The translations under genes were made by a program, and so were the position numbers. This document shows positions 9,483-38,959 of a stretch of DNA of 40,267 nucleotides, piece after piece. Position 1 is the stretch's first letter; each line of letters opens with the position of its first letter. The notes under the pieces are model-generated. The model had not been told where the DNA came from and made no database searches. It saw only the letters and a program-made list of their open reading frames with translations. Location of the stretch: the NCBI GenBank assembly GCA_963715985.1, contig CAVQSP010000022.1:1-40267 (forward strand), given 5' to 3'. This DNA is from an uncultured Thermoleophilia bacterium. Its GTDB lineage: Bacteria; Actinomycetota; Thermoleophilia; UBA2241.

Positions 9483-9497
9483 CCGCGCAGGCGGCGC

Positions 9498-10221: not shown

Positions 10222-10290
10222 TCCGCTCTCCTCGTCCTCATGGCTCGCGGCGGCAGCGCCTGCGCCGGCCGCAGCCTGTATCCTACCCGC

Positions 10291-10807: not shown

Positions 10808-10822
10808 CGCGCTCCAGCCGTG

Positions 10823-21556: not shown

Positions 21557-21660
21557 CGTCTCCCCAGTCCGTCGCGTGCTGGGCACTTCGGGCCGGCCGC
21601 GCCGCTCGTGATGCGCCCAGCCGCGCCGGAAGCGCCTGCGTGCACTCAGTCTAGACCCAG

Positions 21661-21696
21661 CGGCGGCGGGGCGCTCGTGCGAGCGCCCCGCCGCCG
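21661..21696. terminator. Strong hairpin downstream of hydA-2 (terminator or mRNA stabiliser)
   Basis: CGGCGGCGGGGCGCTCG / CGAGCGCCCCGCCGCCG perfect inverted repeat; no U-tract. Confidence 0.6.
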
Positions 21697-21714
21697 TGGC
21701 CGGCCGGGATCGGC

Positions 21715-23652: not shown

Positions 23653-23654
23653 GC

Positions 23655-24860: not shown

Positions 24861-25378
24861 ACGAGGTACCCCTCCCTGCGCTCGGCCGAGTGGCCGGAGT
24901 AGGCGGCCCTGCACTCGGCCGCGATCTGCCTCACCGTCTCGGCCGTGACGCGCGTGTACACGCGGTCGTTGACGAGCAGGGCGGGACCCTGGTCGCACAT
25001 GCCCATGCAGGCGGCCCAGTCGAGCGTGAAGCGGCCGTCCTCGGAGGTCTCGCCGAAGCCGATGCCGAGCTCGGTCTCGAGCTGGTGGGCGATGGCGTCC
25101 TTGCCGGCGAGCTCGCACGACACGGTGCGGCACAGGCGCACGACGTACTCGCCCTGGGCGGCCGGGTCGAGGAAGGCGTAGAACGTGGCGACGCTGTAGA
25201 CCTCCACCGGGTGGATGTCCAGCAGGTCGGCGATGATCTGCATCGCGTCGCTGTCGATGTCGTGGTAGCGCCACTTGACATCTTGAAGGATCGGGATGAG
25301 CGAGCTCCTGCCCGGGCCGAGTTTGTCGACCAGGGCGTTGACGTCACTGCGGAGCTGCTCCTGCTGGGTAACGAGCAT
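24857..25378 (-). CDS. hydC: NuoE/HydC-like [2Fe-2S] subunit
   Basis: VATFY, CRTVSC, CMGMCDQGP. Confidence 0.92.
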   Translation of the reverse strand: MLVTQQEQLRSDVNALVDKLGPGRSSLIPILQDVKWRYHDIDSDAMQIIADLLDIHPVEVYSVATFYAFLDPAAQGEYVVRLCRTVSCELAGKDAIAHQLETELGIGFGETSEDGRFTLDWAACMGMCDQGPALLVNDRVYTRVTAETVRQIAAECRAAYSGHSAERREGYLV

Positions 25379-25390
25379 CGGCATCCTCTC

Positions 25391-25762
25391 TTATGCGAGC
25401 AGCTTCTGGACCTTGGCGACCAGCGTCTGCGGATCCACCGGCTTGGGCTGGAACTCGTCGACCGGGACCATCTCTTCGTCCTTGTCGATGTTCAGGCCCA
25501 TGGCGGCATTGACGCTGGTGAGCATGATGATGGGGAAGGTGTGACCGGCCTTGCGGATCTCGCGCGCCATCCGCAGGCCGTCGTCGGGCTCCTCCATCAT
25601 CACGTCGAGGATGAGGAGGTCGGGACTGCCCCCCTCGAGGGTCTTCATGCCTTCGGCGCGGCTGGACGCGCCGTTCACCTCGTAGCCCTCACGCTCGAGC
25701 ACGAGGCGGCACGCTTCGACGATGTCGGGATCGTCGTCAACAATGAGGATCTTGGGCACCAC
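25391..25762 (-). CDS. Stand-alone response regulator receiver
   Basis: ILIVDDD, LILDVMM, MLTS, PKP; no output domain. Confidence 0.92.
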   Translation of the reverse strand: MVPKILIVDDDPDIVEACRLVLEREGYEVNGASSRAEGMKTLEGGSPDLLILDVMMEEPDDGLRMAREIRKAGHTFPIIMLTSVNAAMGLNIDKDEEMVPVDEFQPKPVDPQTLVAKVQKLLA

Positions 25763-25964
25763 ACACTCCCTTTCTCTCTCGCCGTTTCCCCATGGCGCTC
25801 CCACTCCGGTGCGCCACAGCGGCCATCTCCGCCGCCCTTCACGAGCCTGCTTCGCTGCCGTTGCGGACGGTGTCCGCGCGAGCGGGAAGGAGGCCGAAGT
25901 CGGGCGATTGGCGGTGGCCGCTTAGTCCACTGTTCCAGTTCGACGTGGTCGGAACTGTCGTCCG

Positions 25965-26122: not shown

Positions 26123-27364
26123 TCAGGCCGAAGGCGCGGACGCCGCGGCGGCGGGCGGGGCGGCGGCGGTGCTGGCGGCCTCCGCCGCCTTCACCGTGCC
26201 CTCGGCAGGTGCGTCGTGCAGCGTCACCGTGAAGGTGCTGCCCACGCCGGGCTCGCTCTTCACCGTCGCCTCGCCGTCGTACATGTTGGCGATCTTGCGC
26301 ACGGTCGAGAGCCCCAGGCCGCTGCCGAGGATCTTCACCGTGTTCTCGTTCTTGATGCGCGTGAACTCGTTGAAGAGCTTGCCGGCCTCCTCGGGTGTGA
26401 GTCCGATGCCGGTGTCCGTGACCGTCACGCGCACGGTGTCGCCCTTGCGCTGGATCTTGACGGTCACACTGCCGCCGTCGCGGTTGTACTTGACGGCGTT
26501 GGAGAAGAGGTTGTTGAGCACGATCTCCGCCTCGCCGGCGTCGGCGAGCAGCTCCACGCCCGGGTCCGCATCGAGCGTCACGGTGATGCCGCGGCGCTCG
26601 GCGTCGACGGCGAACATCTCCATCGACGCCTTGGCGAGCTCTGCCAGGTCGAGGCGCTTGATGACGCGCTCGCGCTGCCCGGACTCGATGCGCGTGAGGT
26701 CCAGGAGGTCGCCGATCAGCTTCTTCATGCCGTCCACGCGCACGATGCTGCGCTCGACCATCTGCAGGTTCTGGTCTTCCTCGGTGGTGCGCAGGATGTT
26801 GAGGTAGCCCTCCACGGCGTTGAGCGGCGCCTTGAGCTCGTGCGCCAGCACCGAGATGAAGTTGAAGCGGATCTCGCGCTTCTCCTCGGCGAGCTTGCGC
26901 GCCTGCCGGCTGAGGATGAGCTGCTGGGTGGCCTTGCGCAGCGCGTAGCGCAGCTCGTCCGGGGTGAACGGCTTGGCGAGGAAGTCGTAGGCGCCGAGCT
27001 TGGTGGCCTTCACCGCCGTCTCGAAGGTGGCGTAGGCCGTGATCATGATGGTGAGCACCTCACGACCCTGGGAGCTCATCGCGTCGAGCACGTCCATGCC
27101 GCCGACGCCGGGGAGCTTGAGGTCGAGCAGCAGGAGGTCCACCTCGCCGCCTGCGTCCAGGTAGGCGAGGTAGTCCTCGCCGCTCGTGAAGTAGCGGAAC
27201 GCGTAGCTCGCGTCAACGAGCACGTCGGCGACGTGCACCTTGTACTTCTCGATGATGCGGCGCACGCCGAGGCAGAGCGCCTCCTCGTCGTCGACCATGA
27301 CGACCTGTAGGGCGACCTGCTGGGGGTCCATGAGCGACTCGCGTGGCTGCTGCTCCAGGTCCAT
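26123..27364 (-). CDS. Hybrid receiver-histidine kinase
   Basis: VDDEE, LLLLDLKLPG, AKPF, H-box LAHELKAP, NAVKY, DTGIG, GSGLGL. Confidence 0.92.
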   Translation of the reverse strand: MDLEQQPRESLMDPQQVALQVVMVDDEEALCLGVRRIIEKYKVHVADVLVDASYAFRYFTSGEDYLAYLDAGGEVDLLLLDLKLPGVGGMDVLDAMSSQGREVLTIMITAYATFETAVKATKLGAYDFLAKPFTPDELRYALRKATQQLILSRQARKLAEEKREIRFNFISVLAHELKAPLNAVEGYLNILRTTEEDQNLQMVERSIVRVDGMKKLIGDLLDLTRIESGQRERVIKRLDLAELAKASMEMFAVDAERRGITVTLDADPGVELLADAGEAEIVLNNLFSNAVKYNRDGGSVTVKIQRKGDTVRVTVTDTGIGLTPEEAGKLFNEFTRIKNENTVKILGSGLGLSTVRKIANMYDGEATVKSEPGVGSTFTVTLHDAPAEGTVKAAEAASTAAAPPAAAASAPSA

Positions 27365-27366
27365 AG

Positions 27367-29418
27367 TCAGCTCTCCGTGATCTCCTGCAGGCTGGCCGGC
27401 GCTGCGAGCTCACCCTCGAAGCGCGGCAGGACGATGGTGAACGTCGTGTACGTGGGGCCCTTCTCCGGGTCGGCGTTGGACTCCACCGAGATCTGGCCGC
27501 GGTGCATCTTCACGATGCCGTGGCTCACGGCGAGGCCCAGGCCCGTGCCCTTGCCCACCTGCTTGGTGGTGAAGAACGGGCTGAACAGCTTGTCCAGGTT
27601 CTCCTTGGGGATGCCGCAGCCCTCGTCGACCACCGTGACCATGACGTTCTCCTCGGTGCCGTCGAGCGTCACAAGGATGCGCCCGCCGGCGGGCATGGCG
27701 TGCTGGGCGTTGGTGAGCAGGTTGGTGAGCACCTGGACGATCTGGTCGGCGTCCAGCTCGGCCACCGGGTCGCCGAGATGGTCCTCGACCTCGATCGAGA
27801 CGCCCTCGTCGGTGGGGAGGGTGCGCAGCACCTCCCGCACGAGGGCGCTCAGGTCGGTGGGCTGCCGCACCACGCGGCTCTGCCGCGCGAAGTTCAGCAG
27901 CCCGGCGATGATCTTCTTGCAGCGGTTGGCCTGGTCGACGATGAGGCGCACGTCGTCGGCCACCTCGGTGTCGCTCTCGCAGTCCTCCAGCAGCAGGTTG
28001 GCGTGCAGCAGCAGGATGCCCAGGGGGTTGTTGACCTCGTGGGCGATGCCGGCCGCGAGCTGCCCCATGCTGGCCAGCTTCTCGCTCTTGACCAGGGCCT
28101 CCTTGGTGCTCTCCAGCGAGCGGTGCGACTCCTGCAGCTCCGTGATGGTCTTGCGCAGCTCCTCCACGGAGTAGGGGAGGCACATCTCCACCTCGGCGAG
28201 GCCCTGCCACACGGCCTCGGCGTGGTCGCGGCAGCTCTCGTACCCACAGGCGCCGCAGTCGAGCTCGTCTTCCGCCGTGAACTTGTTCATGCTGTCGAGG
28301 ACCTTGCGCAGCTGCCTCTCCGTGGGCGTGTCGGCGAAGCGCTGGTCGAAGCGCTGGAACGTGCGGCTCAGGTCGACGCCGGCGAACTCGGCCATGGCCG
28401 CCTCCCAGGCGTCCTGGTCGAAGTGACGCTGGCGCTCCCTGGTCTCACGGCTCACCTCCGCGCGGCGCCGGAACACGTGCGCCTCGCAGCTGAAGCCGGC
28501 GCCCATGATGCAGCCCTCGCAACAGAGGATGTCCAGGAGGCGCGCCTCGGTCTCGCCCTGCTCGAAATCGATGATGGCGTCGGCGAGGTTGGCGCGTCCG
28601 TCGGCCGTGATGATGTCGCCGCTCATCAGGTCCTCGTCCAGGTCGGCGGCCTGCAGCATCCCGCGGGTGATGGGGAAGAGGGCGCCCAGGCCGCTGTGCG
28701 GCGGGTCGAAGTCGTCGTCCGCGCGCCGCCCCTCCAGGTGGATGCCGCGCGCCGCGAACATGGCTCGCAGCTCCACGTACGTGAGCGCCGCGTCCACCTC
28801 GCCCTCGAACTGCGCGTACCGGGCCTCGCCCTTCTTGGCGATGCAGGGGCCGATGAAGGCGATCTTGAGCTCGGGCCCGTATCTGGCGTGCAACACGCGG
28901 GCGATGGCCAGCATCGGGGAGACGATGGGGGCGAGGTTGTCGAGCAGGTCCGGGTGGTACTTGCGCACGAAGCTGACCACCGCCGGGCAGGTGGTGGCGA
29001 CGTAACGGTTCGCATCCGACAGGAGCAGGTCACGGTAGGCGGCGGCCACGAGGTCGGCGCCGAACCCCACCTCGTGCACCTGCGAGAAGCCGAGCTCGCG
29101 CAGGGCGGCGACAAGCGCTCCGGTGTCGCAGTCGGTGAACTCGGCGGGGTAGCTGGGGGCGATGATGGCCGCCACCGGGGCGTCCCCGGCGAGCAGCTCC
29201 TCGGTGGCCTCGATGCCGCTCAGCACCTGCTTGGCGTTCTGGCTGCAGACGGTGACGCAGTTGCCGCACCCGATGCAGCGCGTCTGGATGACACTGGCCT
29301 GCCCGTCCAGGATCTGGATGGCCTTGGCCGGGCATTCGCGCACACACGTGTAGCAGGTACGGCACTTCTCGCCGATCGTCGTGACCAGCTGGAGGTGGGC
29401 TACCTTCTCCTCGTTCAT
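27367..29418 (-). CDS. Sensory (group C-type, HydS-like) [FeFe]-hydrogenase fused to a histidine kinase
   Basis: Two [4Fe-4S] motifs; variant H-cluster motifs ATTCPA, IGPCIAKKGEA, ILCCEGCIMG; FeS domain DCGACGY..C..MC; H-box IAHEVNNP; FFTTK, GTGLGL. Confidence 0.9.
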   Translation of the reverse strand: MNEEKVAHLQLVTTIGEKCRTCYTCVRECPAKAIQILDGQASVIQTRCIGCGNCVTVCSQNAKQVLSGIEATEELLAGDAPVAAIIAPSYPAEFTDCDTGALVAALRELGFSQVHEVGFGADLVAAAYRDLLLSDANRYVATTCPAVVSFVRKYHPDLLDNLAPIVSPMLAIARVLHARYGPELKIAFIGPCIAKKGEARYAQFEGEVDAALTYVELRAMFAARGIHLEGRRADDDFDPPHSGLGALFPITRGMLQAADLDEDLMSGDIITADGRANLADAIIDFEQGETEARLLDILCCEGCIMGAGFSCEAHVFRRRAEVSRETRERQRHFDQDAWEAAMAEFAGVDLSRTFQRFDQRFADTPTERQLRKVLDSMNKFTAEDELDCGACGYESCRDHAEAVWQGLAEVEMCLPYSVEELRKTITELQESHRSLESTKEALVKSEKLASMGQLAAGIAHEVNNPLGILLLHANLLLEDCESDTEVADDVRLIVDQANRCKKIIAGLLNFARQSRVVRQPTDLSALVREVLRTLPTDEGVSIEVEDHLGDPVAELDADQIVQVLTNLLTNAQHAMPAGGRILVTLDGTEENVMVTVVDEGCGIPKENLDKLFSPFFTTKQVGKGTGLGLAVSHGIVKMHRGQISVESNADPEKGPTYTTFTIVLPRFEGELAAPASLQEITES

Positions 29419-29440: not shown

Positions 29441-29848
29441 TCAGCCGCGGCGGCCGAGGAGCTCGGCCACCTTGGCGACCAGCGCCCGGGCGTCGATGGG
29501 CTTGTCGAAGTAGGCGTCCACGTTCATCTTCTCCAGGTCCTCGGGTGACTGTGGTCTGAAGTCCAGTCCCAGCGCGCTGCTCACGGACGTGGAGATGATG
29601 ACCGGCACGCCCGCGGTGCGCGGGTCGCTCTTGAGTTCGGCGGCGAAGGTGAAGCCCGCGTCGATGCTCGTCATCATCAGGTCCGTGATGACGAGGTCCG
29701 GCGCCTCCTCGGCGACGCGCTTGCGCGCCTCCGCGGGGTTGGTCGCCGTGACGACGCGGTAGCCGGCGGCCTCGAGGATGAAGCGGTTGATCTCGAGGAA
29801 GTCGTAGTCGTCGTCGACGATCAGTATGAGGGCCTGTTCACCGGTCAT
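29441..29848 (-). CDS. Stand-alone response regulator receiver
   Basis: ILIVDDD, VITDLMM, DKP; no output domain. Confidence 0.92.
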   Translation of the reverse strand: MTGEQALILIVDDDYDFLEINRFILEAAGYRVVTATNPAEARKRVAEEAPDLVITDLMMTSIDAGFTFAAELKSDPRTAGVPVIISTSVSSALGLDFRPQSPEDLEKMNVDAYFDKPIDARALVAKVAELLGRRG

Positions 29849-29991: not shown

Positions 29992-31764
29992 TCAGACGCG
30001 GTCGTGCTCGAAGTAGTGGGTGTGCAGCAGGTGGTGCGAGATCTCGCCGCACGGCGCCCCGAGGTACTCCTCGTAGAGGGCGCACACGGCGGGGTTCTCG
30101 TGGGACTTGCGGATCTCGCGGCCCTCGTCCTCGCGGAAGATGGCCGCCATGCGCGCCTTGCGCACCTCGTTGGTCGTGAACCGCGGCTGCCCGCCACCGC
30201 CGATGCAGCCACCGGGGCAGGTCATGACCTCGACGAAGTGGTACTCGGCTTCGCCGCTCTTGACCTGGTCGATGACCTTCTGCGCGTTGCCGAGACCGTG
30301 GGCCACGGCGACCTTGAGGTCGGCGCCCTCGAGGAAGGCCCAGTCGCCCTTGGCGCCCTCGACCTTGACGGTGGCGACCTTCACGCCCTCGAGACCCTCG
30401 ATGGGCTCGACGTGGAGGTTGGGGAACGGGAACGGCGTCTCGGTGACGATCTCCCACGCCGTGCGCAGGGCCGCCTCCATGACGCCGCCGGTGTTGGCGA
30501 AGATGTCGGCGGCGCCGGTGCTGATGCCCAGCGGCGCGTCCATCTCCTCGTCGGGCAGGCCGCGGAAGTCGATGCCGGCCTGCGTGATCAGGGCGCCGAG
30601 CTCACGCGTGGTGAGCACGATGTCGACGTCCCGCACGCCGCTGTCGTTCATCTCCGGGCGCGCCGCTTCGTACTTCTTGGCGGTGCACGGCATGACCGAG
30701 ACCACGACCATGTCCTCGGGCTTCACGCCGATCTTCTCGGCGTAGTAGGTCTTGGCGATGGCCCCGAACATCTGCTGCGGGCTCTTGCAGGTGCTCAGGT
30801 TGTCGAGCATGTCGGGGTTGAAGTGCTCCATGTAGTTGATCCAGCCCGGAGAGCAGCTGGAGAACTGCGGCAGAGCCACCTGCTCGCCGTCCACGAGCGC
30901 CTTCTTGAGACGCACGAGCAGTTCGGTGCCTTCCTCCATGATCGTGAGGTCGGCGGTGAAGTCGGTGTCGAACACCGCGTTGAAGCCGAGGCGACGGAGC
31001 GCCGCGACCATCTTGCCCGTCACGAGCGTGCCCGGCGCGTAGTCGAAGCACTCGCCGAGGGCGGCACGGATGGCCGGCGCGGTCTGCACGATGACCGTCT
31101 TGGTCGGGTCCTCCAGCGCGTCCCAGACCTGGTCGATCTGGTTGCGCTCCTGGATGGCGCCCACGGGGCACACGGCGGCGCACTGGCCGCACTGCACGCA
31201 GACCACGTCGCTCAGGTTCTGCGAGAACGCCGGGCCGATGAGGGTGGCGAAGCCGCGGCCCTGGGCGAACAGCCCGCCGACCTGCTGCACTTCGTTGCAC
31301 ACCGTGACGCAGCGCCGGCAGGCGACGCACTTGCCCGTGTCGCGGATGAGCGCCGGGGTGCTGTCGTCGATCATCTTGAAGGTCTTCTCGCCCTCGTAGC
31401 GGAGCTCGCCGATGCCGAGGTCGAGGGCGAGGTTGCGCAGCTCGCAGTCGGCGGAACGGCCGCAGACCTGGCAGTCACCGTCGTGCTCCGAGAGGAGCAG
31501 CTCGACGACCATCTGGCGGCCGTCGCGCGCCTTGCCGGAGTTGGTGTGGACGACCATGCCGTCGGTGGCCGGCTGGCTGCACGAGGCGACCAGCGTGCGC
31601 GCGCCCTCCACCTCGACGAGGCAGACGCGGCAGGCACCGATGGACTGGACGTCTTCGAGGTAGCACAGGGTGGGGATCTTCACTCCTGCCTGCCGGGCAG
31701 CCTGGAGCACCGTAGTGCCCCCGGGGACCTCGACAGGGATCCCGTCGATAGTGAGAGTCGGCAT
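29992..31764 (-). CDS. hydA: Group A [FeFe]-hydrogenase catalytic subunit (hydA-1)
   Basis: N-terminal FeS motifs; P1 SSCSPGW, P2 MPCTAKKYEA, P3 EVMTCPGGCIGGGGQP. Confidence 0.95.
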   Translation of the reverse strand: MPTLTIDGIPVEVPGGTTVLQAARQAGVKIPTLCYLEDVQSIGACRVCLVEVEGARTLVASCSQPATDGMVVHTNSGKARDGRQMVVELLLSEHDGDCQVCGRSADCELRNLALDLGIGELRYEGEKTFKMIDDSTPALIRDTGKCVACRRCVTVCNEVQQVGGLFAQGRGFATLIGPAFSQNLSDVVCVQCGQCAAVCPVGAIQERNQIDQVWDALEDPTKTVIVQTAPAIRAALGECFDYAPGTLVTGKMVAALRRLGFNAVFDTDFTADLTIMEEGTELLVRLKKALVDGEQVALPQFSSCSPGWINYMEHFNPDMLDNLSTCKSPQQMFGAIAKTYYAEKIGVKPEDMVVVSVMPCTAKKYEAARPEMNDSGVRDVDIVLTTRELGALITQAGIDFRGLPDEEMDAPLGISTGAADIFANTGGVMEAALRTAWEIVTETPFPFPNLHVEPIEGLEGVKVATVKVEGAKGDWAFLEGADLKVAVAHGLGNAQKVIDQVKSGEAEYHFVEVMTCPGGCIGGGGQPRFTTNEVRKARMAAIFREDEGREIRKSHENPAVCALYEEYLGAPCGEISHHLLHTHYFEHDRV

Positions 31765-31767
31765 CCT

Positions 31768-34700
31768 TCAGCGCTCCTTGTTCGCAGAGCTGTACTTGCC
31801 GTAGTCGCAGCGCAGGCAGCGCCTGGCCTCGGCCAGGGCGACCTGTGCGGCCCAGCCCAGCTCGACTTCGTCGAAGTTGGTGACCCGAGCGGCCACGGGG
31901 AGTTCGTCGACCGCATGACGGTCGACCAGCTGCGGGTCGGCGTCGGGGTCGAAGAAGGTCGGCGGCTCCACGTCCATGCGCCAGAACGCGTGGTTGGCGC
32001 CGGTGAGGAACTGGTCGATGCCGGCCGCGGCCCTCTCGCCGGCGCCGATCGCCTCGACCACGGAGGACGGACCCGTGGCGGCGTCGCCGCCGGTGAAGAC
32101 CCAGTCCGTGGACGTCTGGCCCGTGTCCGGGTCGGCGGAGAGGTAGCCCCAGCGGTTGAGCTCGACGGGCGTGCCGTCCAGGACGGCCGGCGCGTCGAGC
32201 TTCTGGCCGATGGCGGCGATGACGGTGTCGGCCTCCACGACGAAGTCGGGGTTGTGGCCGGCCACAGGGCGCCGCCGCCCGCTCCTGTCGTAGTCGCCGA
32301 GCGCCATCTCCTTGCAGTGCACGCCGCAGACGTTGCCGCTCGCGTCGCGGAGGATCTCCTCCGGGGCCACGAGCGTCATGATCTCGATGCCCTCGAGGTC
32401 GGCGGCGTCGATCTCCTCGCCCCACGCCGGCATCTGCGCGCGCGTGCGGCGGTACAGGATCTTGACGCTCTCGGCGCCGAGGCGCACGGCGGTGCGGGCG
32501 GCGTCGATGGCCGCGTTGCCGCCGCCGATGACGGCGACGTTCTTGCCCACCGTGCCCTTGCCGCTGACGTTGTACTCCTTGAGGAAGGAGAGGCCGTCGT
32601 ACACGCCGGGGCCGTCCTCGCCGGGCACGCCGATACCCATGCCCTGCGGGGCGCCGACGGCCACGAACACGGCCTCGTACCCCTCGTCCTTGAGGGCCTT
32701 GAGCGTGAAGTCGCGGCCGAGGGCCTTGCCGTACTCGAAGCGCACGCCCATGTCCTCGATCATCTTGACTTCGCGCTCGAGCTCCTGGCGCGGCAGGCGG
32801 TAGGCCGGGATGGCCTGGACGAGCATGCCGCCGGCTTTGGGCTCGGCCTCGAACACGACCGGCTTGTAGCCGAGCCGGGCGAGGAAGTACGCGGCCGAGA
32901 GGCCGGCCGGCCCGGAGCCGACGACGGCGACCTTGCGGGCCGCGTTCTCGTCGCTGGCGTGGATCTCGGGCAGCTGCGCGTCCTTCTCCTGCTCCACCAT
33001 GAAGCGCTTGACGTGACGGATCGCGAGGGCCCCGTCGAGGCTCGCGCGCATGCACTTGCTCTCGCAGGGGTGGAAGCAGACGCGGGCGCAGATGCTGGCC
33101 AGCGGGTTGCGCTCGCGGTGCAGCCTGAGCGCCTCGTCGTACCGCTCCTCGCCCACCAGGCTCACGAAGCCGGGGATGTTGACGCTGGCCGGGCACGCGT
33201 TGGAGCAGCGCGCCTTGAACAGCGTCGCGCAGACGCCGGCCTCGCAGTACCCGTCCTTGATGTGCGCTTCGTACTCGTGACGGAAGTGGCGGATGGTGCT
33301 GAGCACCGGGTTGGGGGCCGTCTGGCCGAGGCCGCACAGGGCGGTCGCGCTGATGGACTCGCCGAGGGCGACGAGGCGCTCGATGTCGCCCTCTTCACCT
33401 TCGCCGCGCGTGATGCGCTCGACGATCTCGAGCATGCGCTTGGTGCCCACGCGGCAGGGCGGGCACTTGCCGCAGCTCTCTTCCTGCGTGAACTCGAGGA
33501 AGAAGCGGGCGATGTCCACCATGCAGGTGTCCTCGTCCATCACGATGACGCCGCCGGAGCCCATGATGGCGCCGAGCTCCTGGAGCGTCGCGTAGTCGAC
33601 GGGCACGTTGAGGTGTTCCTTGGGGATGCAGCCGCCGGACGGGCCGCCGAGCTGCGCGGCCTTGTAGGCCTTGCCGTTCGGGATGCCGCCGCCGACCTCG
33701 TAGATGAGCTCGCCGAGCTGCATGCCGATCGGCACCTCGACGAGGCCGGTGTGCTGCACGTTGCCGCCCAGCGCGAACACCTTGGTGCCCTTGCTGGACT
33801 CGGTGCCCGTGCTGGCGTACCACTCGGCGCCCTTGAGGATGATGGGCGCGATGTTGGCGAAGGTCTCCACGTTGTTGAGCACGCTGGGCTTGCCCCAGAG
33901 GCCCGAGACCGCCGGGAACGGCGGGCGCGGGCGCGGCTCGCCGCGATGGCCCTCGATGGAGGTCATGAGCGCGGTCTCCTCGCCGCAGACGAAGGCGCCG
34001 GAGCCCATGCGGATCTCGAGGTCGAAGTCGAAGCCGCTGCCCATGATGTCGTCGCCGAGCAGGCCGTACTCGCGGGCCTGGCCGAGTGCGTGCTCGAGGC
34101 GTTCCACAGCCAGCGGGTACTCGGCGCGCACGTACACGTAGCCCTGGTGCGCGCCGATGGCGAAGGCGCCGATGACCATGCCCTCGATGAGCGAGTGCGG
34201 GTCACCTTCGAGCACCGAGCGGTCCATGAACGCGCCCGGGTCGCCCTCGTCGGCGTTGCAGAGGATGTACTTGGTGTCGTTGTCCTGCTGCTGGGCGAAG
34301 CGCCACTTCATGCCGGTCGGGAAGCCGGCGCCGCCGCGGCCGCGCAGACCGCTGGCGAGGACTTCTTCGACGACCTGTTCGGGGGTCATCTCGGTGAGCA
34401 CCTTGGCCAGCGCCTGGTAGCCCTCGCGGGCGATGTACTCGTCGATCTTGAGGGGGTCGATGATGCCGGAGTTGCGCAGCACGATCTTCACCTGGCGGTT
34501 GAAGAACGGGATGTCGTCCATCTCGGCCTGGGTGCGTTCGGTACCGGGGGCGTGGCTCACGAGGCGATCGACGATGCGCCCCTTGAGCAGATGCTCCTCG
34601 ACGATCTCGGGCATGTCTTCGACGTGCACGTTCTGGTAGAAGACGCCGTCCGGGTAGACGAGCGCCACGGGACCCTGCACGCAGGGACCCAGACAGCCGG

Positions 34701-34836
34701 TCTCGACGACGCCCACCTCGCCGGCGAGGTCGCGCTTGACGAGCTCGGTGCGTGCCGCCTCGGCCACGTCCAGCGAGCCGCAGGCGATGCAGCCGCCGCC
34801 GGTGCAGATCAGGAGTTGACTTCTCACATCAGCCAT
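31768..34836 (-). CDS. hydB: HydB/NuoF subunit fused to a GltD/NfnA-like FAD/NADPH oxidoreductase (1022 aa)
   Basis: N-terminal [2Fe-2S], NADEGDPGAFMDR, GGPSGG, SCGKCPPCR, HIKDGYCEAGVC; then CSNACP, CARVCFHPCE, GSGPAG, GGGNAA, YRRTR, EARRCLRC. Confidence 0.92.
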   Translation of the reverse strand: MADVRSQLLICTGGGCIACGSLDVAEAARTELVKRDLAGEVGVVETGCLGPCVQGPVALVYPDGVFYQNVHVEDMPEIVEEHLLKGRIVDRLVSHAPGTERTQAEMDDIPFFNRQVKIVLRNSGIIDPLKIDEYIAREGYQALAKVLTEMTPEQVVEEVLASGLRGRGGAGFPTGMKWRFAQQQDNDTKYILCNADEGDPGAFMDRSVLEGDPHSLIEGMVIGAFAIGAHQGYVYVRAEYPLAVERLEHALGQAREYGLLGDDIMGSGFDFDLEIRMGSGAFVCGEETALMTSIEGHRGEPRPRPPFPAVSGLWGKPSVLNNVETFANIAPIILKGAEWYASTGTESSKGTKVFALGGNVQHTGLVEVPIGMQLGELIYEVGGGIPNGKAYKAAQLGGPSGGCIPKEHLNVPVDYATLQELGAIMGSGGVIVMDEDTCMVDIARFFLEFTQEESCGKCPPCRVGTKRMLEIVERITRGEGEEGDIERLVALGESISATALCGLGQTAPNPVLSTIRHFRHEYEAHIKDGYCEAGVCATLFKARCSNACPASVNIPGFVSLVGEERYDEALRLHRERNPLASICARVCFHPCESKCMRASLDGALAIRHVKRFMVEQEKDAQLPEIHASDENAARKVAVVGSGPAGLSAAYFLARLGYKPVVFEAEPKAGGMLVQAIPAYRLPRQELEREVKMIEDMGVRFEYGKALGRDFTLKALKDEGYEAVFVAVGAPQGMGIGVPGEDGPGVYDGLSFLKEYNVSGKGTVGKNVAVIGGGNAAIDAARTAVRLGAESVKILYRRTRAQMPAWGEEIDAADLEGIEIMTLVAPEEILRDASGNVCGVHCKEMALGDYDRSGRRRPVAGHNPDFVVEADTVIAAIGQKLDAPAVLDGTPVELNRWGYLSADPDTGQTSTDWVFTGGDAATGPSSVVEAIGAGERAAAGIDQFLTGANHAFWRMDVEPPTFFDPDADPQLVDRHAVDELPVAARVTNFDEVELGWAAQVALAEARRCLRCDYGKYSSANKER

Positions 34837-34853
34837 AGTCGGTTCACTCGCTC

Positions 34854-35225
34854 TCAGCTCTGGATGAGGTAGGCGTCGACGGGGGTCCCGCCTACGAGGT
34901 GGGTCTCCACGATCGCGTGGACCTTCTCGGTGTCGAGCAGCCCGTAGCGGTACATCGTGCCGTCGGGCATGGTGACCGTCGCCATCGGCTCCTCTTCGCA
35001 GAGACCGGCGCAGCCGGACTGGTGGAGGCTCACGTCGGTGACGCCGGCGTCGGCGATCTCGGTCATGAAGGCGGCCACGATGCCGCGCGCGCCGGCGGCG
35101 ATGCCGCAGGTGCCCATGTGCACGGTGACCTGGCGCTCCTTGCGGCCCTCACGCAGGTCGATGTCGGCCTTGGCCTTGGCGGCCAGCGCCATGAGCTGGT
35201 CGGGGCTGGTGATCTTGTCGGCCAT
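34854..35225 (-). CDS. hydD: Thioredoxin-like [2Fe-2S] ferredoxin subunit (HydD/HndB-like)
   Basis: VHMGTCGIAAGA, SGCAGLCEEEP. Confidence 0.85.
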   Translation of the reverse strand: MADKITSPDQLMALAAKAKADIDLREGRKERQVTVHMGTCGIAAGARGIVAAFMTEIADAGVTDVSLHQSGCAGLCEEEPMATVTMPDGTMYRYGLLDTEKVHAIVETHLVGGTPVDAYLIQS

Positions 35226-35226
35226 G

Positions 35227-35773
35227 TCAGGCGCTCCTCACCTACTCCTTCCGCAAGGACGGGCTCCTCGGCGTACTGGGCGAGGATCTCGTTGACGCGC
35301 TTGGGCTTGACGCGGTGATGCACGTCGTCGTCGACCATGATCACCGGGGCGAGGCCGCAGGCGCCGAAGCAGCGCCCGATCTCCAGCGAGAACACGCGGT
35401 CGTCGGTGGTGCCGCCGATGTCGATGCCGAGCTCCTTCTTGAGCGCGTCCATCACCGCGACGCCGCCGCGCACGTAGCAGGCGGTGCCGAGGCAGATGCG
35501 GATGAGATGCTTGCCGCGCGGCACCGTGGTGAAGAACGAGTAGAACCCCACGACGCCGGCGACTTCGCTGTACGGCTTGCGCAGTTCTTTGGCGATGTGT
35601 TTGAGGGCGACCTCGGGCAGGTACCCGAAGATGCCCTGGGCGAGCTGGAGCACCGGGATCAGGGCGCCGGGCTTGCCCCGGTAGTCCGCGATGACGGCGT
35701 CCAGGCGCGCGAGGAGCTCCTCCTCCGTCGGCTCCTCGGTGCAGCAGGCACACCCCTTGACTTCTTCACTCAT
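35227..35773 (-). CDS. hydC: NuoE/HydC (HndA-like) subunit; natural stop probably displaced by an indel
   Basis: LIPVLQ, GFYSFF, CLGTACYVRG, RCFGACGLAP. Confidence 0.9.
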
Positions 35774-35822: not shown

Positions 35823-36317
35823 TCAGGTCAGGGTCTGCTGGTAGGCGACGAGGGCGGGGAGCCGCTGCGGCAGCTCGCTGCCGCGCACCTCCACGCGCTC
35901 GTCGCCGTCGACAAGGTCCACCCGGAAGTCGATGTCCGGGTTCGTGGCGACCATGGTGAGGATGCTGGTCGCCACGTCGCCGAGCGGCGGCCGGTCCACG
36001 TTGTCCAGGGCCAGCCAGGCGTGGACGGCGACGCCGCCCAGCTCCTCCGACCGGCCCACTGTGAGGCCGCCGCCTGCGTCCTCCGCCGCCTGGCGGAAGA
36101 GGCTCAGGCCGAGGCCGGTCTTCTTGTGCTGCTTGGTCGTGTAGAACGGGTCCATGGCGTCCTCCGCCTGCACCGGGAGGCCGGGCCCGTCGTCCTGCAC
36201 GTCTATGGCGAGGGTCCCGGCGGTGCGGTCGGCGACGATGGTCGTGGCGATCACCGAGGCGCCGGCGCGCACGGAGTTCTCGATGACGTCCAGCAGGTAC
36301 AGCGAGAGGTCATGCAT
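35823..36317 (-). CDS. Stand-alone HATPase_c (histidine-kinase-like ATPase)
   Basis: LLDVIENSVRAGA, DDGPG, DPFYTTK, GLGL, DRPPLGD; no HisKA domain. Confidence 0.88.
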   Translation of the reverse strand: MHDLSLYLLDVIENSVRAGASVIATTIVADRTAGTLAIDVQDDGPGLPVQAEDAMDPFYTTKQHKKTGLGLSLFRQAAEDAGGGLTVGRSEELGGVAVHAWLALDNVDRPPLGDVATSILTMVATNPDIDFRVDLVDGDERVEVRGSELPQRLPALVAYQQTLT

Positions 36318-37050
36318 GCCCCACGCTCCTGCCCTCGCGGCCGGCCAGCGCCAGCGCGAGCTCGTCGAAGCCGGGGCGCTCGCAGCGCACCGCGGTGCGC
36401 GCCACGCCGATCTCGGCCAGGTAGTGGGCGTCGGACGAGTGCACCAGCGGCAGGCCGTGTACGCGGAAGGGCGCTTCGGCCGCGGCGTCGTCCGCCACGT
36501 GGCGGGAGACCTCCACGGCGTCGAAGCCGGCGGCGTCGGGGAAGAAGCCCAGCTGGGCGATGACGCCGAAGCTGCGGCGGTCGATGTGCGCGGCCACGGC
36601 CAGCCCGCCGTGCCGGTGGATGAGCGCCACGACGGCGTCCACGTCCAGCGTGGTCGCCGTGGCCAGGGCGCGGTCCTCGCGGGCCACCTCGGCGCCGCCG
36701 GCGTCCAGCACGAGCTGCTCGCCGAAGAAGGCCTCGTAGCCGTCGTCGGTGCACGGCAGCGTCGCCCCTACCTCGAGGCCGGCGGCCGCGGCCGCTCCGG
36801 CGTCGGGGAAGAGGCCCACCACGTGGCACTCCTCGGCGGTCGTGACCTCCATGCCGGCCAGCACGGCAAGACGTGCGCCGGCGGCCGCCTGGACGGCGGC
36901 GGTGTTGCGGGCGCTGTTGTGGTCACAGACGGCGATCATGCCCAGGCCCTCAGCGAGCGCCCTCTCCACGATGGCGGGCGGGGTCATCTCCCCGTCGGCG
37001 CAGGGCGAGAGCGCGGTGTGCACGTGCAGGTCTGCGAGGCAGACGTTCAC
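36310..37050 (-). CDS. PHP-domain phosphoesterase
   Basis: DLHVHT, CDHN, AAHIDR, SSDAH. Confidence 0.9.
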   Translation of the reverse strand: MNVCLADLHVHTALSPCADGEMTPPAIVERALAEGLGMIAVCDHNSARNTAAVQAAAGARLAVLAGMEVTTAEECHVVGLFPDAGAAAAAGLEVGATLPCTDDGYEAFFGEQLVLDAGGAEVAREDRALATATTLDVDAVVALIHRHGGLAVAAHIDRRSFGVIAQLGFFPDAAGFDAVEVSRHVADDAAAEAPFRVHGLPLVHSSDAHYLAEIGVARTAVRCERPGFDELALALAGREGRSVGHA

Positions 37051-37400
37051 GCATGGGACCCCTTGACGCCCAGCTCGTAGAGGCGGCCGACCACGTCGAA
37101 GGTCTCGTCGGCGGCGACGTAGAGCACGATGTCCTCAGCGGCCGCCTTCGCGATCACGTCGGCCTCCGGCCGGCGCCCGCCCGCGAACACCACGGCCGCG
37201 AGCTCTGCGTGGCTGGCCACGGCGATGACGTTGAGGTGCACCTGCAGCGTGACGAGCAGGCCGCCCTCCGGGGCGTGCGCGAGCACGTCGCTGAGCAGGT
37301 CCGACGCGTACCCGCGGGTGATGTCAGCCTCGGCGATGGCCGGTGTCTCCGGCGTCAGCAACGCCAGGTCGAGCTTCCTTGCGACGTCTGCGAGCTTCAT
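37047..37400 (-). CDS. DRTGG-domain protein
   Basis: MKLADVARKL..RGYASDLLSDVL..LVTLQVHLNVIAVA; HPr-kinase N-terminal/DRTGG type. Confidence 0.85.
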   Translation of the reverse strand: MKLADVARKLDLALLTPETPAIAEADITRGYASDLLSDVLAHAPEGGLLVTLQVHLNVIAVASHAELAAVVFAGGRRPEADVIAKAAAEDIVLYVAADETFDVVGRLYELGVKGSHA

Positions 37401-38959
37401 CCGACGCTCCCCTCCTCGTTCTTCACGTACGGGCACGCCGCGCGTGTGGCGCGGCCCATCACGATGTCTTCGGCCAGGGCCGCGCAGGTCGGTGCCCCGC
37501 ACACGCCGCAGTCCTTGCCGGGCAGGGACCGGGCGGCGGCGTCCAGCTCGCCGAGCTTGCGGATGGCCACGGCCATGTCCTCGTCGAGGCGCACGCCGGG
37601 GCGCGGGCGGAACGGGCGCGCCCGCTCCACGCTGCGGCCGCCGTCGGCGGTGCTGCTCGCGGCGGCGCCCCAGCGCCAGGTGGCCACGAAGGCGTCCTCC
37701 GCGAGCAGCGGAGAGCCGAAGCAGCCGCCGTCGCAGAGATAGGGCTCCACGGCGGCGACGCCGGTGAGCACGCCGTCCTCGATCTGTTCCAGCACGGCCG
37801 TCACGTGCGCGACGCCGTTGACCACGAGCAGGTCGTCGGCGCCGGCCGCCTGCGGCCGCGGCGTCCTCGCGGCGGCCGTCTCGTGCCGCGCCGTGAGGCG
37901 GGGGAGGACAGCCTCGCGTACGAGTCCGGGCGTCACGGTGCGGCGCTGGTCGGTGGGCTGCTGTGCGAGCAGGGCAGTGCGCTGGCTCGGGCACGAGACC
38001 ACGAAGGTGACCTCGCGGTCCCCGAGGTCGCGCTGCAGCGCCTCCCACGGTGAGGCCAGCGGCGCCAGGTGCGGCACCAGGGCCGGGAACTTGAGCTCGA
38101 TGAGGCTCACGGCGGCAGGGCAGACCGGCGAGATCACCGGCGCTCGCAGGGAGGAGCCGGCGACGAGGTCGAGCACCTCGCGGCGCAGCGCGTCCTCGTA
38201 GGGGTGCGCCACGACGACCTCGTCGTACCCGAGGGCACGCAGCTCGTCGAGCACGATGTCGGCGGCGTGGTCGCCGAAGCCGGCCAGCAGCGCCGGCGGA
38301 ACGGCCAGCACGCCGCCGGCCTCGAGCGCGGCGGGCGCGTCCAGCAGCGTCAGCGCGCGCGGCGCGCAGGCGCCGATGCAGCAGGTGCAGTCCACGCAGA
38401 GGTGCGGCAGCACCGACGGCCGCCCGTCGCGCACGCGCACGGCGGCCGTGGGGCAGGCCACCAGGCAGTGGCGGCAGTCTTTGCACAGCTCGGGCACGAC
38501 GCCCAGCGAGCTCGGCCGGGCGCCCTGGTCGGCGGCCTCGGGGCGCAGGGCGATGGAGAAGCTCACCGTGGTGCCCTCTCCGGTCGCCGACGTGACCTTG
38601 ACGCGGTCGCTGTTGCGGGCGATGTTGGGCAGGCCCATGCCGGCTCCAAAGCCCAGGGCGCGGGCTTCGGCCGAGGCCGTGGAGAAGCCCTCGCGCATGG
38701 CCGCGGACACGTCGGGGATGCCGGGCCCCTCGTCCACCACGTCCACGTCCAGCTGCCCGTCGCTCACGGTGGCGTCCAGCCGCCCGCCGCCGCCCGTGTG
38801 GATGACCACGTTCATCTCGGCCTCGTAGGCGGCGATCATGGCGCGGCGCACCGCGTCGGCCTCGGCGCCGATGCGCTTGAGGTGGCGCTTGAGGTCGCGG
38901 GAGGCCGCGCCGGCGCCGGCGTAGTCACCGCTCTCGATGGGGTACGAGAGGCGCTCCAT
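37397..38959 (-). CDS. RsbT/anti-sigma-type Ser/Thr kinase fused to ferredoxin, a degenerate Fe-hydrogenase large-subunit domain and an FeS domain
   Basis: YEAEMNVVIH, DEGPGI, EGFSTA, GAGMGLPN; CKDCRHC..CP, CVDCTCC; SPVCPA, SCPSQR, LCDGGC; DCGVCGAPTC. Confidence 0.87.
   Translation of the reverse strand: MERLSYPIESGDYAGAGAASRDLKRHLKRIGAEADAVRRAMIAAYEAEMNVVIHTGGGGRLDATVSDGQLDVDVVDEGPGIPDVSAAMREGFSTASAEARALGFGAGMGLPNIARNSDRVKVTSATGEGTTVSFSIALRPEAADQGARPSSLGVVPELCKDCRHCLVACPTAAVRVRDGRPSVLPHLCVDCTCCIGACAPRALTLLDAPAALEAGGVLAVPPALLAGFGDHAADIVLDELRALGYDEVVVAHPYEDALRREVLDLVAGSSLRAPVISPVCPAAVSLIELKFPALVPHLAPLASPWEALQRDLGDREVTFVVSCPSQRTALLAQQPTDQRRTVTPGLVREAVLPRLTARHETAAARTPRPQAAGADDLLVVNGVAHVTAVLEQIEDGVLTGVAAVEPYLCDGGCFGSPLLAEDAFVATWRWGAAASSTADGGRSVERARPFRPRPGVRLDEDMAVAIRKLGELDAAARSLPGKDCGVCGAPTCAALAEDIVMGRATRAACPYVKNEEGSVG

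Follow-up and report, generated by a model that had tools for sequence, protein, structure and literature searches.

In the solved enzymes of the Bfu family, mid-potential electrons reach the flavin mononucleotide (FMN), where NAD(H) binds, through BfuA and the B1 cluster, and a low-potential electron travels through the mobile C1 cluster of BfuC and the B3/B4 clusters to ferredoxin (PMC12018979, PMC10482914), which docks between the C-terminal domain of BfuC and the B3/B4 domain (PMC12018979). The mechanism of electron splitting in Bfu-type enzymes is not yet settled (PMC12018979). Here we describe a gene from an uncultured Thermoleophilia bacterium, found in a stretch of 40,267 nucleotides (assembly GCA_963715985.1, contig CAVQSP010000022.1; hereafter "the window", meaning the whole stretch), which encodes a HydB-type NADH-binding subunit of an [FeFe]-hydrogenase whose ferredoxin-docking tail is replaced by a GltD/NfnB-like module for NADPH and flavin adenine dinucleotide (FAD).

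Several described systems share parts of this locus. HydABC of A. woodii (7q4v/8a5e), T. kivui (8a6t) and T. maritima (7p5h) correspond to residues 1-543 of the fused protein and to its HydC and HydA partners; in those enzymes, however, HydB terminates with a ferredoxin-type 2x[4Fe-4S] domain and works with ferredoxin, whereas the fused protein carries an FAD/NADPH module of ~480 amino acids. The Stn/NfnABC transhydrogenases (S. ovata 8oh5, C. saccharolyticus 9bov, T. sibiricus 9n5u) pair a Bfu BC core with a module of GltD type that is likewise permuted and Lys-liganded. Their module, however, is an insertion in the NuoG-like BfuA that supplies the mid-potential input, their BfuB retains B3/B4 and passes electrons to ferredoxin, and they have no H-cluster. 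With its module on BfuB, no B3/B4 and a hydrogenase as BfuA, the locus falls outside the Stn/Nfn-Bfu group. NfnAB/NfnSL (T. maritima 4ylf, P. furiosus 5jca) offer the same GltD-like fold with two [4Fe-4S] clusters, FAD and an NADPH site, yet NfnB is a free subunit with an N-terminal CxxC, a Glu ligand, a bifurcating FAD and an FNR-like NfnA partner, none of which was seen here; permuted order, Lys610 and the lack of an NfnA-like gene in the operon place the fused protein elsewhere. GltD, a free protein of ~450-490 amino acids that goes with GltB, is set apart by the start of the Fer4_20 match at profile position 17 and by NCBIfam gltD/gltA scores below cut-off. Hnd of Desulfovibrio fructosovorans is an NAD(P)-linked HndABCD [FeFe]-hydrogenase (PMC7483475). 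The operon resembles Hnd in its four genes, for a NuoE-like (HndA), a small thioredoxin-like (HndB), a NuoF-like (HndC) and a catalytic (HndD) subunit, and a close homologue of the fused protein is annotated "HndC" in a public record. HndC ends in ferredoxin-type clusters and is not known to carry an FAD module.

The fused architecture itself was described from genomes in 2024 (PMC11406978, PMC11216029), and the novelty implied by the original prediction for this window does not hold. Zheng and Huang (2024, mSystems; PMC11406978) described a "sub-type I" BfuB in Hydrogenedentota, which carries DPD_II and an FAD/NAD(P) domain in place of B3/B4, and on genomes only postulated a second FAD bifurcation centre; the relatives named are Spirochaetota, Pseudomonadota, Planctomycetota, Verrucomicrobiota, Kiritimatiellota and Thermodesulfobacteriota. 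Actinomycetota are not named for sub-type I in the main-text passages concerned, and the supplementary tables of that paper may list actinobacterial members. The window protein has the sub-type I make-up, i.e., Fer4_20 and Pyr_redox_2 after the NuoF core and hydA downstream, and like sub-type I of group A3 it keeps B5/FMN/B1, the gene order C-D-B-A and an M3a-type HydA with Ser-type P1. Greening et al. (2024, Cell; PMC11216029) reported, in archaeal complexes that are hybrids of [FeFe]- and [NiFe]-hydrogenases, a NuoF-like HydB bearing a "glutamate synthase (GltA) domain", and suggested ferredoxin as acceptor at that domain. Likened by description, that HydB shares with ours a glutamate-synthase-small-subunit-like domain, modelled there with 7MFM chain I (the same chain was matched here at 6.7e-39), but differs in its archaeal host and its hybrid HydA-HyhS partner. 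The main text of Schut et al. (2022; PMC9304861) does not mention GltD, glutamate synthase, NfnB or "fused". The window is an actinobacterial (Thermoleophilia) member of an already published, uncharacterised architecture that is widespread and in print since 2024; it adds a Thermoleophilia example and anatomical detail, not a new kind of system. The details that appear new are the circular permutation of the module, its Stn-type Lys610, and neighbours that include formate dehydrogenase (FDH), [NiFe]-hydrogenase and MetVF. Four other leads (PMC5736913, PMC3543383, bioRxiv 2026.08.07.743378 and bioRxiv 2021.09.25.461819) had no bearing on the fusion.

The two halves of the fused protein

The gene is one uninterrupted open reading frame (ORF) with 0.96 G+C at third codon positions (GC3), in a window of ~70% G+C (Table 1), and its source is a metagenome-assembled genome (MAG) with estimates of 88.8% completeness and 7.29% contamination. 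Residues 1-543 form a Bfu-type HydB and residues 544-1015 a GltD/NfnB-like module. All motifs on which the original prediction relied were found: GDPGAFMD (198-205), GAFVCGEE (280-287) and GGPSG (397-401) in the HydB part, the metal motif as H525..C531-E-A-G-V-C536, and the NADP(H) motif of a GltD/NfnA-like FAD domain (GGGNAA and YRRTR). Its claim that the terminal 2x[4Fe-4S] domain had been lost stood in part: the ferredoxin-type domain is missing, but there are no fewer clusters, because the module has its own ligands for two [4Fe-4S] sites.

Residues 1-543 aligned end to end, through an HIxDxxCxAGVC motif, with solved bifurcating HydB/BfuB chains, i.e., A. woodii 7q4v_B (E = 6.8e-240), NiFe-HydB 7t2r_B (3.1e-237), T. 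kivui 8a6t_B, StnB 8oh5_B, NfnB 9n5u_B and T. maritima 7p5h_B, with values ranging down to 5.5e-185; these scores, like those of the module below, are far beyond chance. The glycine loop of the NAD(H) site is GRGGAGFPTG at 166-175. The His525/Cys531/Cys536 motif aligned with HIRDKKCPAGVC of A. woodii HydB and with its equivalents in NiFe-HydB and T. kivui HydB; models of solved Bfu enzymes place either Zn or a [2Fe-2S] "B2" cluster at the equivalent His/Cys site (PMC12018979, PMC10482914). The association of the three NuoF motif variants with Bfu enzymes was upheld within this genome, where all three occur in 4/4 further intact paralogues of Bfu type and in the near-duplicate of the operon; the short HydB of the same window reads GEPGTFKD / GAYVCGEE / GGASG and a further short NuoF paralogue MEPGSIKD / GRYICGEA / GGAST. 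Judged by these sequences, the variants do separate Bfu-type from other paralogues in this genome, a small sample that makes no validated signature.

BfuB has been defined by IPR011538, IPR019554, IPR019575 and IPR017896, with BfuC and BfuA adjacent (Schut et al. 2022; PMC9304861). In the fused protein the N-terminal [2Fe-2S] domain (B5) and the His/Cys site are both present and conserved, and BfuC (hydC) and a BfuA homologue (hydA) are encoded alongside. The NuoF FMN, SLBB and NuoF [4Fe-4S] domains were also found (PF01512, PF10531 and PF10589, which we take to be counterparts of the BfuB InterPro entries). What is missing, on a Pfam basis, is the C-terminal ferredoxin-type double-cluster domain B3/B4: in the fused protein Pfam gave no match to the ferredoxin-type Fer4 family, only Fer4_20 being matched, whereas Fer4 does match the canonical BfuB paralogues of the same genome and the BfuB of one related locus (L081).

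The module begins 8 residues past Cys536, where canonical HydB starts B3/B4, and the anatomy inferred earlier (ferredoxin-like B3/B4 exchanged for a GltD/NfnB-like FAD/NADPH module) is borne out. So is the proposed likeness to Stn/Nfn-type complexes, in that the nearest solved relatives of the module are NADPH-entry domains of Stn/NfnABC transhydrogenases: residues 543-1015 best matched that of C. saccharolyticus NfnA (9bov_A 103-571, 1.5e-108), followed by T. maritima NfnB (4ylf_B, 3.6e-94), S. ovata StnC (8oh5_C 103-570, 5.6e-94) and T. sibiricus NfnA and, lower down, P. furiosus NfnL, GltD and dihydropyrimidine dehydrogenase. Against NfnB the match falls into two pieces, the tail 982-1011 (...NFDEVELGW...EARRCLRCD) pairing with NfnB 14-43 and residues 544-947 with NfnB 47-462. 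On this alignment the cluster domain has its first CxxC at the very end, a circular permutation of the module relative to NfnB/GltD, and the resulting order is also that of 9bov_A (NfnA) and 8oh5_C (StnC). It is due to the permutation that the Fer4_20 match covers profile positions 17-110 only, as compared with 1-111 in the canonical GltD of the same genome.

The two [4Fe-4S] sites of the module are assigned Cys544, 548, 583, 587, 591, 595, 1007 and 1010 plus Lys610 as ligands. Lys610 aligned with StnC Lys170 at the FAD-proximal cluster, where NfnB has Glu. In Stn, this Lys is an unusual ligand of the proximal cluster, and mutagenesis and structure made the FAD a non-bifurcating NADPH entry (PMC10482914). 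Lys stands at this position in 63/63 fused sequences, and in 26 of the 29 of a more diverse set with eight 50%-cluster representatives. StnC Cys114 has no match, the fused protein having Ile554 there. Arg680, which aligned with Arg201/Arg239 of NfnB/StnC, was invariant in 42 sequences and present in 28/29 fused proteins of the diverse set. The stretch GGGNAAIDAARTAVRLGA...YRRTR is near-identical to those of the NADPH-binding chains 9bov_A, 4ylf_B, 8oh5_C and 9n5u_A, and the GxGxxA variant has been proposed to favour NADP(H) (PMC7483475); with GxGxxA plus a basic Y-R-R stretch, the module carries a predicted NADPH-binding site of GltD/NfnB type.

A quick IQ-TREE tree of modules was built on 76 hand-picked cores of ~230 sequences, with the careful search unfinished. 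Stn-like modules formed a clade of their own, and the fused-HydB modules fell, with little resolution, among other fusions and the GltD of the genome. Derivation of the module from Stn was dropped, as it is not nested in the tree despite the best PDB matches, the shared permutation and the Lys. An AlphaFold2 model of the fused protein, built on a 42-sequence alignment, reached pLDDT 89.0 and pTM 0.84. By Foldseek, its HydB half matched 7q4v_B (TM 0.85 by target, 63% identity) and its module half 9bov_A (475 aligned columns, 42% identity), and no solved chain covered both halves (best TM by query 0.51).

Spread, conservation and partners of the fusion

In a 5.8-billion-protein collection, the 120 best of 8000 scored candidates all carried PF01512, PF14691 and PF07992 together (68-92% identity, 753-1060 amino acids). 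They came from Thermoleophilia/Actinobacteria, Planctomycetota and Hydrogenedentes MAGs (one Hydrogenedentes homologue, P0120, at 68% identity), under the public names NuoF, HndC, "FAD-dependent oxidoreductase" and "hydrogenase". A second search, with residues 440-1022 against 1.84 billion 50%-cluster representatives, placed full-length fusions in separate 50% clusters (P0123, P0133, P0135, P0148, P0156, P0181, P0204 and P0226). The same search gave eight proteins of 580-780 amino acids (P0127, P0129, P0131, P0140, P0142, P0134, P0179 and P0187) in which the NuoF [4Fe-4S] domain is followed by DPD_II and FAD/NADPH domains and an FMN domain is lacking, several of them sharing a ~60-residue offset; they could represent a split or reduced variant of the fusion, or metagenome genes truncated at the N-terminal end.

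At the locus level, residues 440-1022 were searched against one-genome-per-species contigs, which gave 448 relative stretches, and the best 80 were kept. At least 1320 nt of upstream DNA was available for 75 loci, and in all 75 the NuoF half ended at most 6 nt from the module half and in the same frame. The carriers among the best 80 were mostly Thermoleophilia; others were Bacteroidales, Spirochaetaceae, Kapaibacterium, Pontiellaceae, Planctomycetota, Bacillota (including the cultured Pelotomaculum terephthalicicum JT), Anaerolineales, Dehalococcoidales, Limnocylindrales, Omnitrophota, Armatimonadota, Desulfarculaceae, Desulfobacterales and Syntrophaceae. Conservation was scored on 63 full-length fused sequences (the window and 62 loci), and the ligand and motif positions (B5, FMN/NAD(H), B1, His525/Cys531/Cys536, module Cys, Lys610 and NADPH motif) were kept in 59-63 of them. 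The four B5 cysteines (Cys11/16/48/52) were retained in 60-62/63, the B1 cysteines and His525/Cys531/Cys536 in 63/63, G166, G168, G169 and G171 of the NAD(H) glycine loop in 63/63 (Gly175 being weaker, 47/63), G771/A776 and Y795-R796-R797 in 62-63/63, and Cys1007/Cys1010 in 62/63; the FAD-fold glycines of the module were conserved as well. This retention points to selection on both nucleotide sites and all clusters.

Partners were counted in the 67 loci with at least 1800 nt downstream. hydA directly followed the fused gene in 55 (the match being broken in four of these, at ≥90% identity), and only a NuoG-like N-terminus was found downstream in seven, of which six (all except L094) were scanned with Pfam: formate-dehydrogenase-type molybdopterin proteins stood downstream in L078 (with FdhD), L085 and L095, and a NuoG-like protein followed by the small and large subunits of a [NiFe]-hydrogenase in L076, L093 and L096. 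In L095 the FDH is split into two ORFs (9082-10152 and 10165-11781), possibly by an in-frame stop such as a selenocysteine codon. In one locus (L081, Thermoguttaceae) another BfuB, canonical and with Fer4, separates the fused gene from hydA, and four had neither hydA nor a NuoG-like partner, MetV/MetF coming next in one of them (L090). Given the FDH, [NiFe]-hydrogenase and MetVF partners, the fused core is thus not confined to [FeFe]-hydrogenases. Permuted GltD-like modules were also found fused to DHODH-like, POR/TPP and HdrA/FlpD-like partners.

Close relatives of the operon were met in public sequence reads. Contigs from RNA-library runs with the labels rice paddy, sediment and ice lay on window 29992-35773 at 90-99% likeness. 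In three RNA-library runs, Logan contigs covered 29-30/30 bins at ≥90%, and three short RNA-library contigs bridged the fusion junction near 33207. This is a weak hint of expression, as such libraries can contain DNA and the contigs are from relatives that differ by 5-10%. Fourteen DNA runs labelled wetland metagenome held 54-68% of the sampled words of the same interval.

Proposed electron routes and competing explanations

We favour a mechanism in which a built-in NADP(H) site replaces ferredoxin, so that H2 would be linked to both NAD(H) and NADP(H) in a coupled reaction; we put its probability at about 45%. The fused gene product is the HydB/BfuB flavoprotein of a four-gene HydC-HndB-HydB-HydA [FeFe]-hydrogenase. 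H2 electrons would run from HydA over B1 to the FMN, where NAD(H) would bind, and the other branch would lead over the two [4Fe-4S] clusters of the module to FAD, in place of the path from C1 over B3/B4 to ferredoxin; the FAD would gather two single electrons and swap a hydride with NADP(H). The coupling would probably be NADH + NADPH + 2H+ <-> 2H2 + NAD+ + NADP+, without ferredoxin, and its benefit would be H2 production from NADH at a higher H2 pressure than NADH alone allows, or NADPH made from H2. The analysis establishes the architecture with its conservation, ligand sets and relatives; cofactor occupancy, NADP(H) specificity, electron path, coupling and direction we infer.

That NADP(H) would take over from ferredoxin is the simplest interpretation: the module sits where B3/B4 carries the low-potential path, and in its solved relatives it conveys electrons between NADPH/FAD and a wire of two clusters. 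The chief reason to prefer a bifurcation-type mechanism to a plain NAD(P)H hydrogenase comes from within the window: none of the Bfu-specific features is missing from the fused proteins, but the neighbouring operon encodes a short, S. wolfei-like HydB from which B5, the His/Cys site and the Bfu motif variants have been lost. The observation behind the original prediction is confirmed, and its interpretation, that the low-potential branch would be wired to NADP+, is a reasonable one. With assumed cellular potentials of ~-280 mV for NADH and ~-380 mV for NADPH, and hence a pair mean of ~-330 mV (table in PMC9304861), our own calculation suggests that confurcation could evolve H2 to ~10^-2.8 atm, versus ~10^-4.5 atm with NADH alone. 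A stricter version, an obligately coupled, ferredoxin-free bifurcating/confurcating hydrogenase (2 H2 + NAD+ + NADP+ <-> NADH + NADPH + 2 H+) whose Bfu flavobicluster would split electrons between two nucleotides, with the covalent FAD/NADP(H) site as the "low-potential" acceptor, we regard as somewhat unlikely.

Several points weigh against the coupled, ferredoxin-free mechanism: i) at standard potentials of -414 mV for H2 and -320 mV for NAD+ and NADP+ (PMC9304861), H2 reduces both nucleotides exergonically and coupling is therefore not thermodynamically required, so that the case for it rests on the assumed cellular potentials; ii) an NADH-NADPH wire, unless gated, would be an uncoupled transhydrogenase; iii) the genome has a match to the membrane transhydrogenase subunit PntB and two Stn-like loci, and thus no obvious need for another NADH/NADPH link; iv) the authors of the earlier descriptions preferred other readings, a second bifurcating FAD in one case (PMC11406978) and ferredoxin acting at the glutamate-synthase domain in the other (PMC11216029); v) the canonical GltD of the same genome has Glu at the Lys610 position and, since GltD with Glu does not bifurcate, Lys versus Glu is no clean marker of non-bifurcation; vi) in the quick tree, with 35 of its 73 inner branches unresolved, the module lies outside the Stn clade; and vii) no assay or structure of such a fused enzyme was found in the full-text literature, a scope that excluded most subscription journals.

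The nearest competitor is an uncoupled hydrogenase with two doors, in which the module is an independent entry or exit for NADPH and either NADH or NADPH is used singly, much as in the non-bifurcating NADH-dependent HydABC of syntrophs, without energetic coupling; electrons would pass one at a time from FAD over the 2x[4Fe-4S] pair, C1/FMN and B1 to HydA. That H2 can exergonically reduce either nucleotide under standard conditions (PMC9304861) suits such an enzyme, as do the report of a non-bifurcating HydB without B3/B4 in Syntrophomonas wolfei (cited in PMC11406978), the presence of syntroph lineages among the relatives (e.g., Pelotomaculum terephthalicicum JT and Syntrophaceae), and the use of the same permuted GltD-like modules on many unrelated redox partners, as if they were a general NADPH plug. 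However, B5, His525/Cys531/Cys536 and the Bfu motif variants are retained, unlike in the short non-bifurcating HydB of the window, and an ungated wire between NADH and NADPH would presumably dissipate the cellular NADPH/NADH disequilibrium; we consider the two-door enzyme unlikely. Quite unlikely, in our judgement, is an enzyme still dependent on ferredoxin, either through a second, NfnB-like bifurcating FAD or through ferredoxin docking on the glutamate-synthase-like domain or on HndB, which would handle H2, NAD(H), NADP(H) and ferredoxin together. Both ideas are in print (PMC11406978, PMC11216029), NfnB, a homologue with 42% identity to the model, does bifurcate at FAD and reduce ferredoxin through two [4Fe-4S] clusters (PMC10482914), Arg680 is conserved in alignment with the NfnB/StnC arginines, and L081 combines the fused gene with a Fer4-bearing BfuB. 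On the other hand, the operon has no NfnA/NfnS-like FNR subunit (Pfam scan of window ORFs), the proximal-cluster ligand is the Stn-type Lys rather than the Glu of NfnB, the same fold is non-bifurcating in Stn (PMC10482914), the [4Fe-4S] pair that faces ferredoxin in NfnB lies here covalently beside the HydB core, and the B3/B4 domain that binds ferredoxin in a Bfu enzyme (PMC12018979) is absent. Unlike Zheng and Huang, we lean to a non-bifurcating NADP(H) site over a second bifurcating FAD.

A module that makes no use of NADPH, being either NADH-binding or a structural or regulatory remnant of a plain NADH-dependent hydrogenase, would agree with the public annotation NuoF and with the NCBIfam name of HydA ("NADH-dependent [FeFe] hydrogenase, group A6"), and sequence cannot prove nucleotide specificity; it is nevertheless very improbable, since GxGxxA and Y-R-R, aligned with the NADPH-binding NfnB, StnC, NfnA and GltD, are kept nearly throughout, and conservation of all eight Cys, the Lys and the FAD-fold glycines argues against a remnant. 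That an error of assembly or gene calling joined two genes could be suspected from the MAG source and from the frameshifts in a near-duplicate on contig C20, but the ORF is uninterrupted and has a GC3 of 0.96, the halves are contiguous in all loci scored across many phyla, each of the 120 best homologues is full-length or has both halves, and RNA-library contigs bridge the junction; this explanation is refuted for practical purposes.

If a coupled, ferredoxin-free enzyme is what the fused gene encodes, it would regenerate NADPH (and NADH) from H2 without ferredoxin, and H2 metabolism would have to be reread in many wetland, sediment and digester genomes, given the 448 relatives in one-genome-per-species contigs and the wetland metagenomes that hold it. 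Work on Bfu enzymes is hampered by their transient ferredoxin partner, and a natural variant with the ferredoxin branch hard-wired to NADP(H)/FAD would test whether the FMN-cluster core can bifurcate to another acceptor. Were coupling obligate, the fused proteins would make up a ferredoxin-independent Bfu branch, spanning FDH-, [NiFe]-hydrogenase- and MetVF-linked forms, and their low-potential product, a stable nucleotide, could be measured with ease.

The operon, its surroundings and other copies

The operon is transcribed in the order HATPase_c and PHP genes, hydC, hndB, hydB/gltD, hydA, response regulator, HydS-like gene and hybrid kinase (Table 1).

Table 1. Features of the window, with residue numbers for parts of the fused protein
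Feature	Positions in window	Strand	Basis or remark
Fused hydB-gltD gene	31768..34836	-	single ORF, 1022 amino acids + stop
Residues 7-81, N-terminal thioredoxin-like [2Fe-2S] domain, B5 site, Cys11/16/48/52	34594..34818	-	Pfam 2Fe-2S_thioredx
Residues 161-330, NuoF FMN/NAD(H)-binding domain	33847..34356	-	Pfam Complex1_51K, 2.6e-45
Residues 354-402, SLBB			Pfam
Residues 441-525, NuoF [4Fe-4S] domain, B1, Cys455/458/461/501	33262..33516	-	Pfam NADH_4Fe-4S, 1.1e-34
Residues 525-536, His525/Cys531/Cys536 metal motif	33229..33264	-	alignment to solved HydB chains
Residues 529-619, DPD-domain-II-type 2x[4Fe-4S] domain	32980..33252	-	Pfam Fer4_20, 1.9e-22
Residues 635-933, FAD + NADP(H) Rossmann domains	32038..32934	-	Pfam Pyr_redox_2, 3.8e-31
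NADPH motif, GGGNAA (771-776) ... YRRTR (795-799)	32440-32526	-	
Residues 1006-1010, C-terminal RCLRC tail	31807..31821	-	supplies the CxxC that NfnB/GltD carry N-terminally
PHP-domain protein	36310-37050	-	Pfam; upstream of hydC
HATPase_c protein	35823-36317	-	Pfam; upstream of hydC
hydC/bfuC, NuoE-like thioredoxin-fold [2Fe-2S] subunit, C1 cluster	35238..35773	-	Pfam 2Fe-2S_thioredx 5.4e-47, residues 25-167
hndB/bfuD-like small thioredoxin-like [2Fe-2S] protein, 123 amino acids	34854..35225	-	weak Pfam 2Fe-2S_thioredx 8.6e-4, below cut-off
hydA, catalytic [FeFe]-hydrogenase subunit, 590 amino acids	29992..31764	-	Pfam Fe_hyd_lg_C 8.1e-96, Fe_hyd_SSU, Fer2_4, NADH-G_4Fe-4S_3
Response regulator receiver protein	29441..29848	-	Pfam Response_reg 8.6e-18; syntenic in related loci
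HydS-like sensory [FeFe]-hydrogenase domain + histidine kinase fusion	27367..29418	-	Pfam Fe_hyd_lg_C 4.3e-44, FeS, HisKA, HATPase_c
Hybrid response-regulator/histidine kinase	26123..27364	-	Pfam Response_reg, HisKA, HATPase_c
Second operon: response regulator	25391-25804	-	
Second operon: NuoE-like gene	24857-25384	-	
Second operon: short NuoF-like HydB without B5, His/Cys site and B3/B4	within 23655-25274	-	
Second operon: HydA, Fer2_4 from residue 277	ORF 21715-24378	-	
Second operon: GAF-HisKA-HATPase kinase	20201-22081	-	

HydA has 2Fe-2S, His-type 4Fe-4S, 2x4Fe-4S and H-cluster domains, with the H-cluster motifs intact (FSSCSPGW, MPCTAKK and EVMTCPGGCIGGGGQ), and scored 870.9 bits against a cut-off of 765 with NCBIfam NF040763, the group A6 entry quoted above. 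The features of group A3 (multimeric, HydBC-linked) are also present, namely P1-P3, the N-terminal 2Fe-2S/4Fe-4S domains and NuoE/NuoF-like partners. In the HydS-like protein, only a P2-like GPCIAKK and a loose P3 were seen. hndB has a GC3 of 0.93-1.0 over its full length, and its position is kept in actinobacterial and several Bacillota loci, as is the synteny of the HATPase_c/PHP pair. For hydC, all NCBIfam matches of HoxE/NuoE type were below cut-off. Its frame runs on without a stop to 35063 (35063-35237, minus strand), overlapping hndB by 163 nt out of frame; past ~nt 530 GC3 drops to 0.63-0.70 and G+C at second codon positions climbs to 0.93-0.97, the added tail is rich in Pro, Arg, Ala and Ser, and in some relatives the HydC match stops at about residue 175. 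The overrun is more readily explained by a lost stop or a single-base error than by a true extension. Among the window ORFs scanned, from ~11.2 to 40.0 kb, the GltB-like family had no match.

Elsewhere in the genome (G000), eight matches to the NuoF domain, including the fused gene and its near-duplicate, and at least 11 Fer4_20 matches over cut-off were found. The near-duplicate (L097) occupies the last 13 kb of contig C20, up to the contig end, and repeats the whole operon from PHP to HydS, with mostly 88-98% amino-acid identity over the PHP-HydA core, 45-80% in some HydC and module pieces, the response regulator and HydS, and frame breaks in PHP, HATPase, hydB/gltD and hydA. Given the contamination estimate of the MAG, it is probably a strain variant or assembly redundancy and not a true paralogue. 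The two Stn/NfnABC-like loci (L098 on contig C17 and L099 on C11) run NuoE, NuoF and BfuA; likeness of their NuoF to the window protein ends ~10 residues past the His/Cys motif, by which the tail would not be a GltD-like module, and their BfuA has a GltD-like insertion after the Fer2 domain. The PntB (membrane transhydrogenase beta) match lies at G000:C14:328832-330184 and contains one in-frame TGA. With PntB and the two Stn-like loci present, an argument that the organism has no other transhydrogenase was abandoned.

Within the window, a 520-amino-acid protein encoded at 37397-38959 (minus strand) combines an anti-sigma-factor-type kinase domain (HATPase_c_2) with a degenerate Fe_hyd_lg_C and an "FeS" motif, has none of P1-P3, and might serve, upstream of the operon, as another, non-catalytic sensor of H2 or redox state. 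On the other side adjoins the second [FeFe]-hydrogenase operon (20201-25804, minus strand), whose listed ORFs overlap. HydF was not recognised among the window ORFs scanned; an ORF at 15530-16876 (plus strand) had no Pfam or NCBIfam match. The H-cluster maturases HydE (305.8 bits versus a cut-off of 254.6) and HydG (536.4 versus 312.15) are encoded at 14237-15331 and 18789-20204 (minus strand), respectively, and an aspartase/fumarase-family lyase lies between them at 17017-18447.

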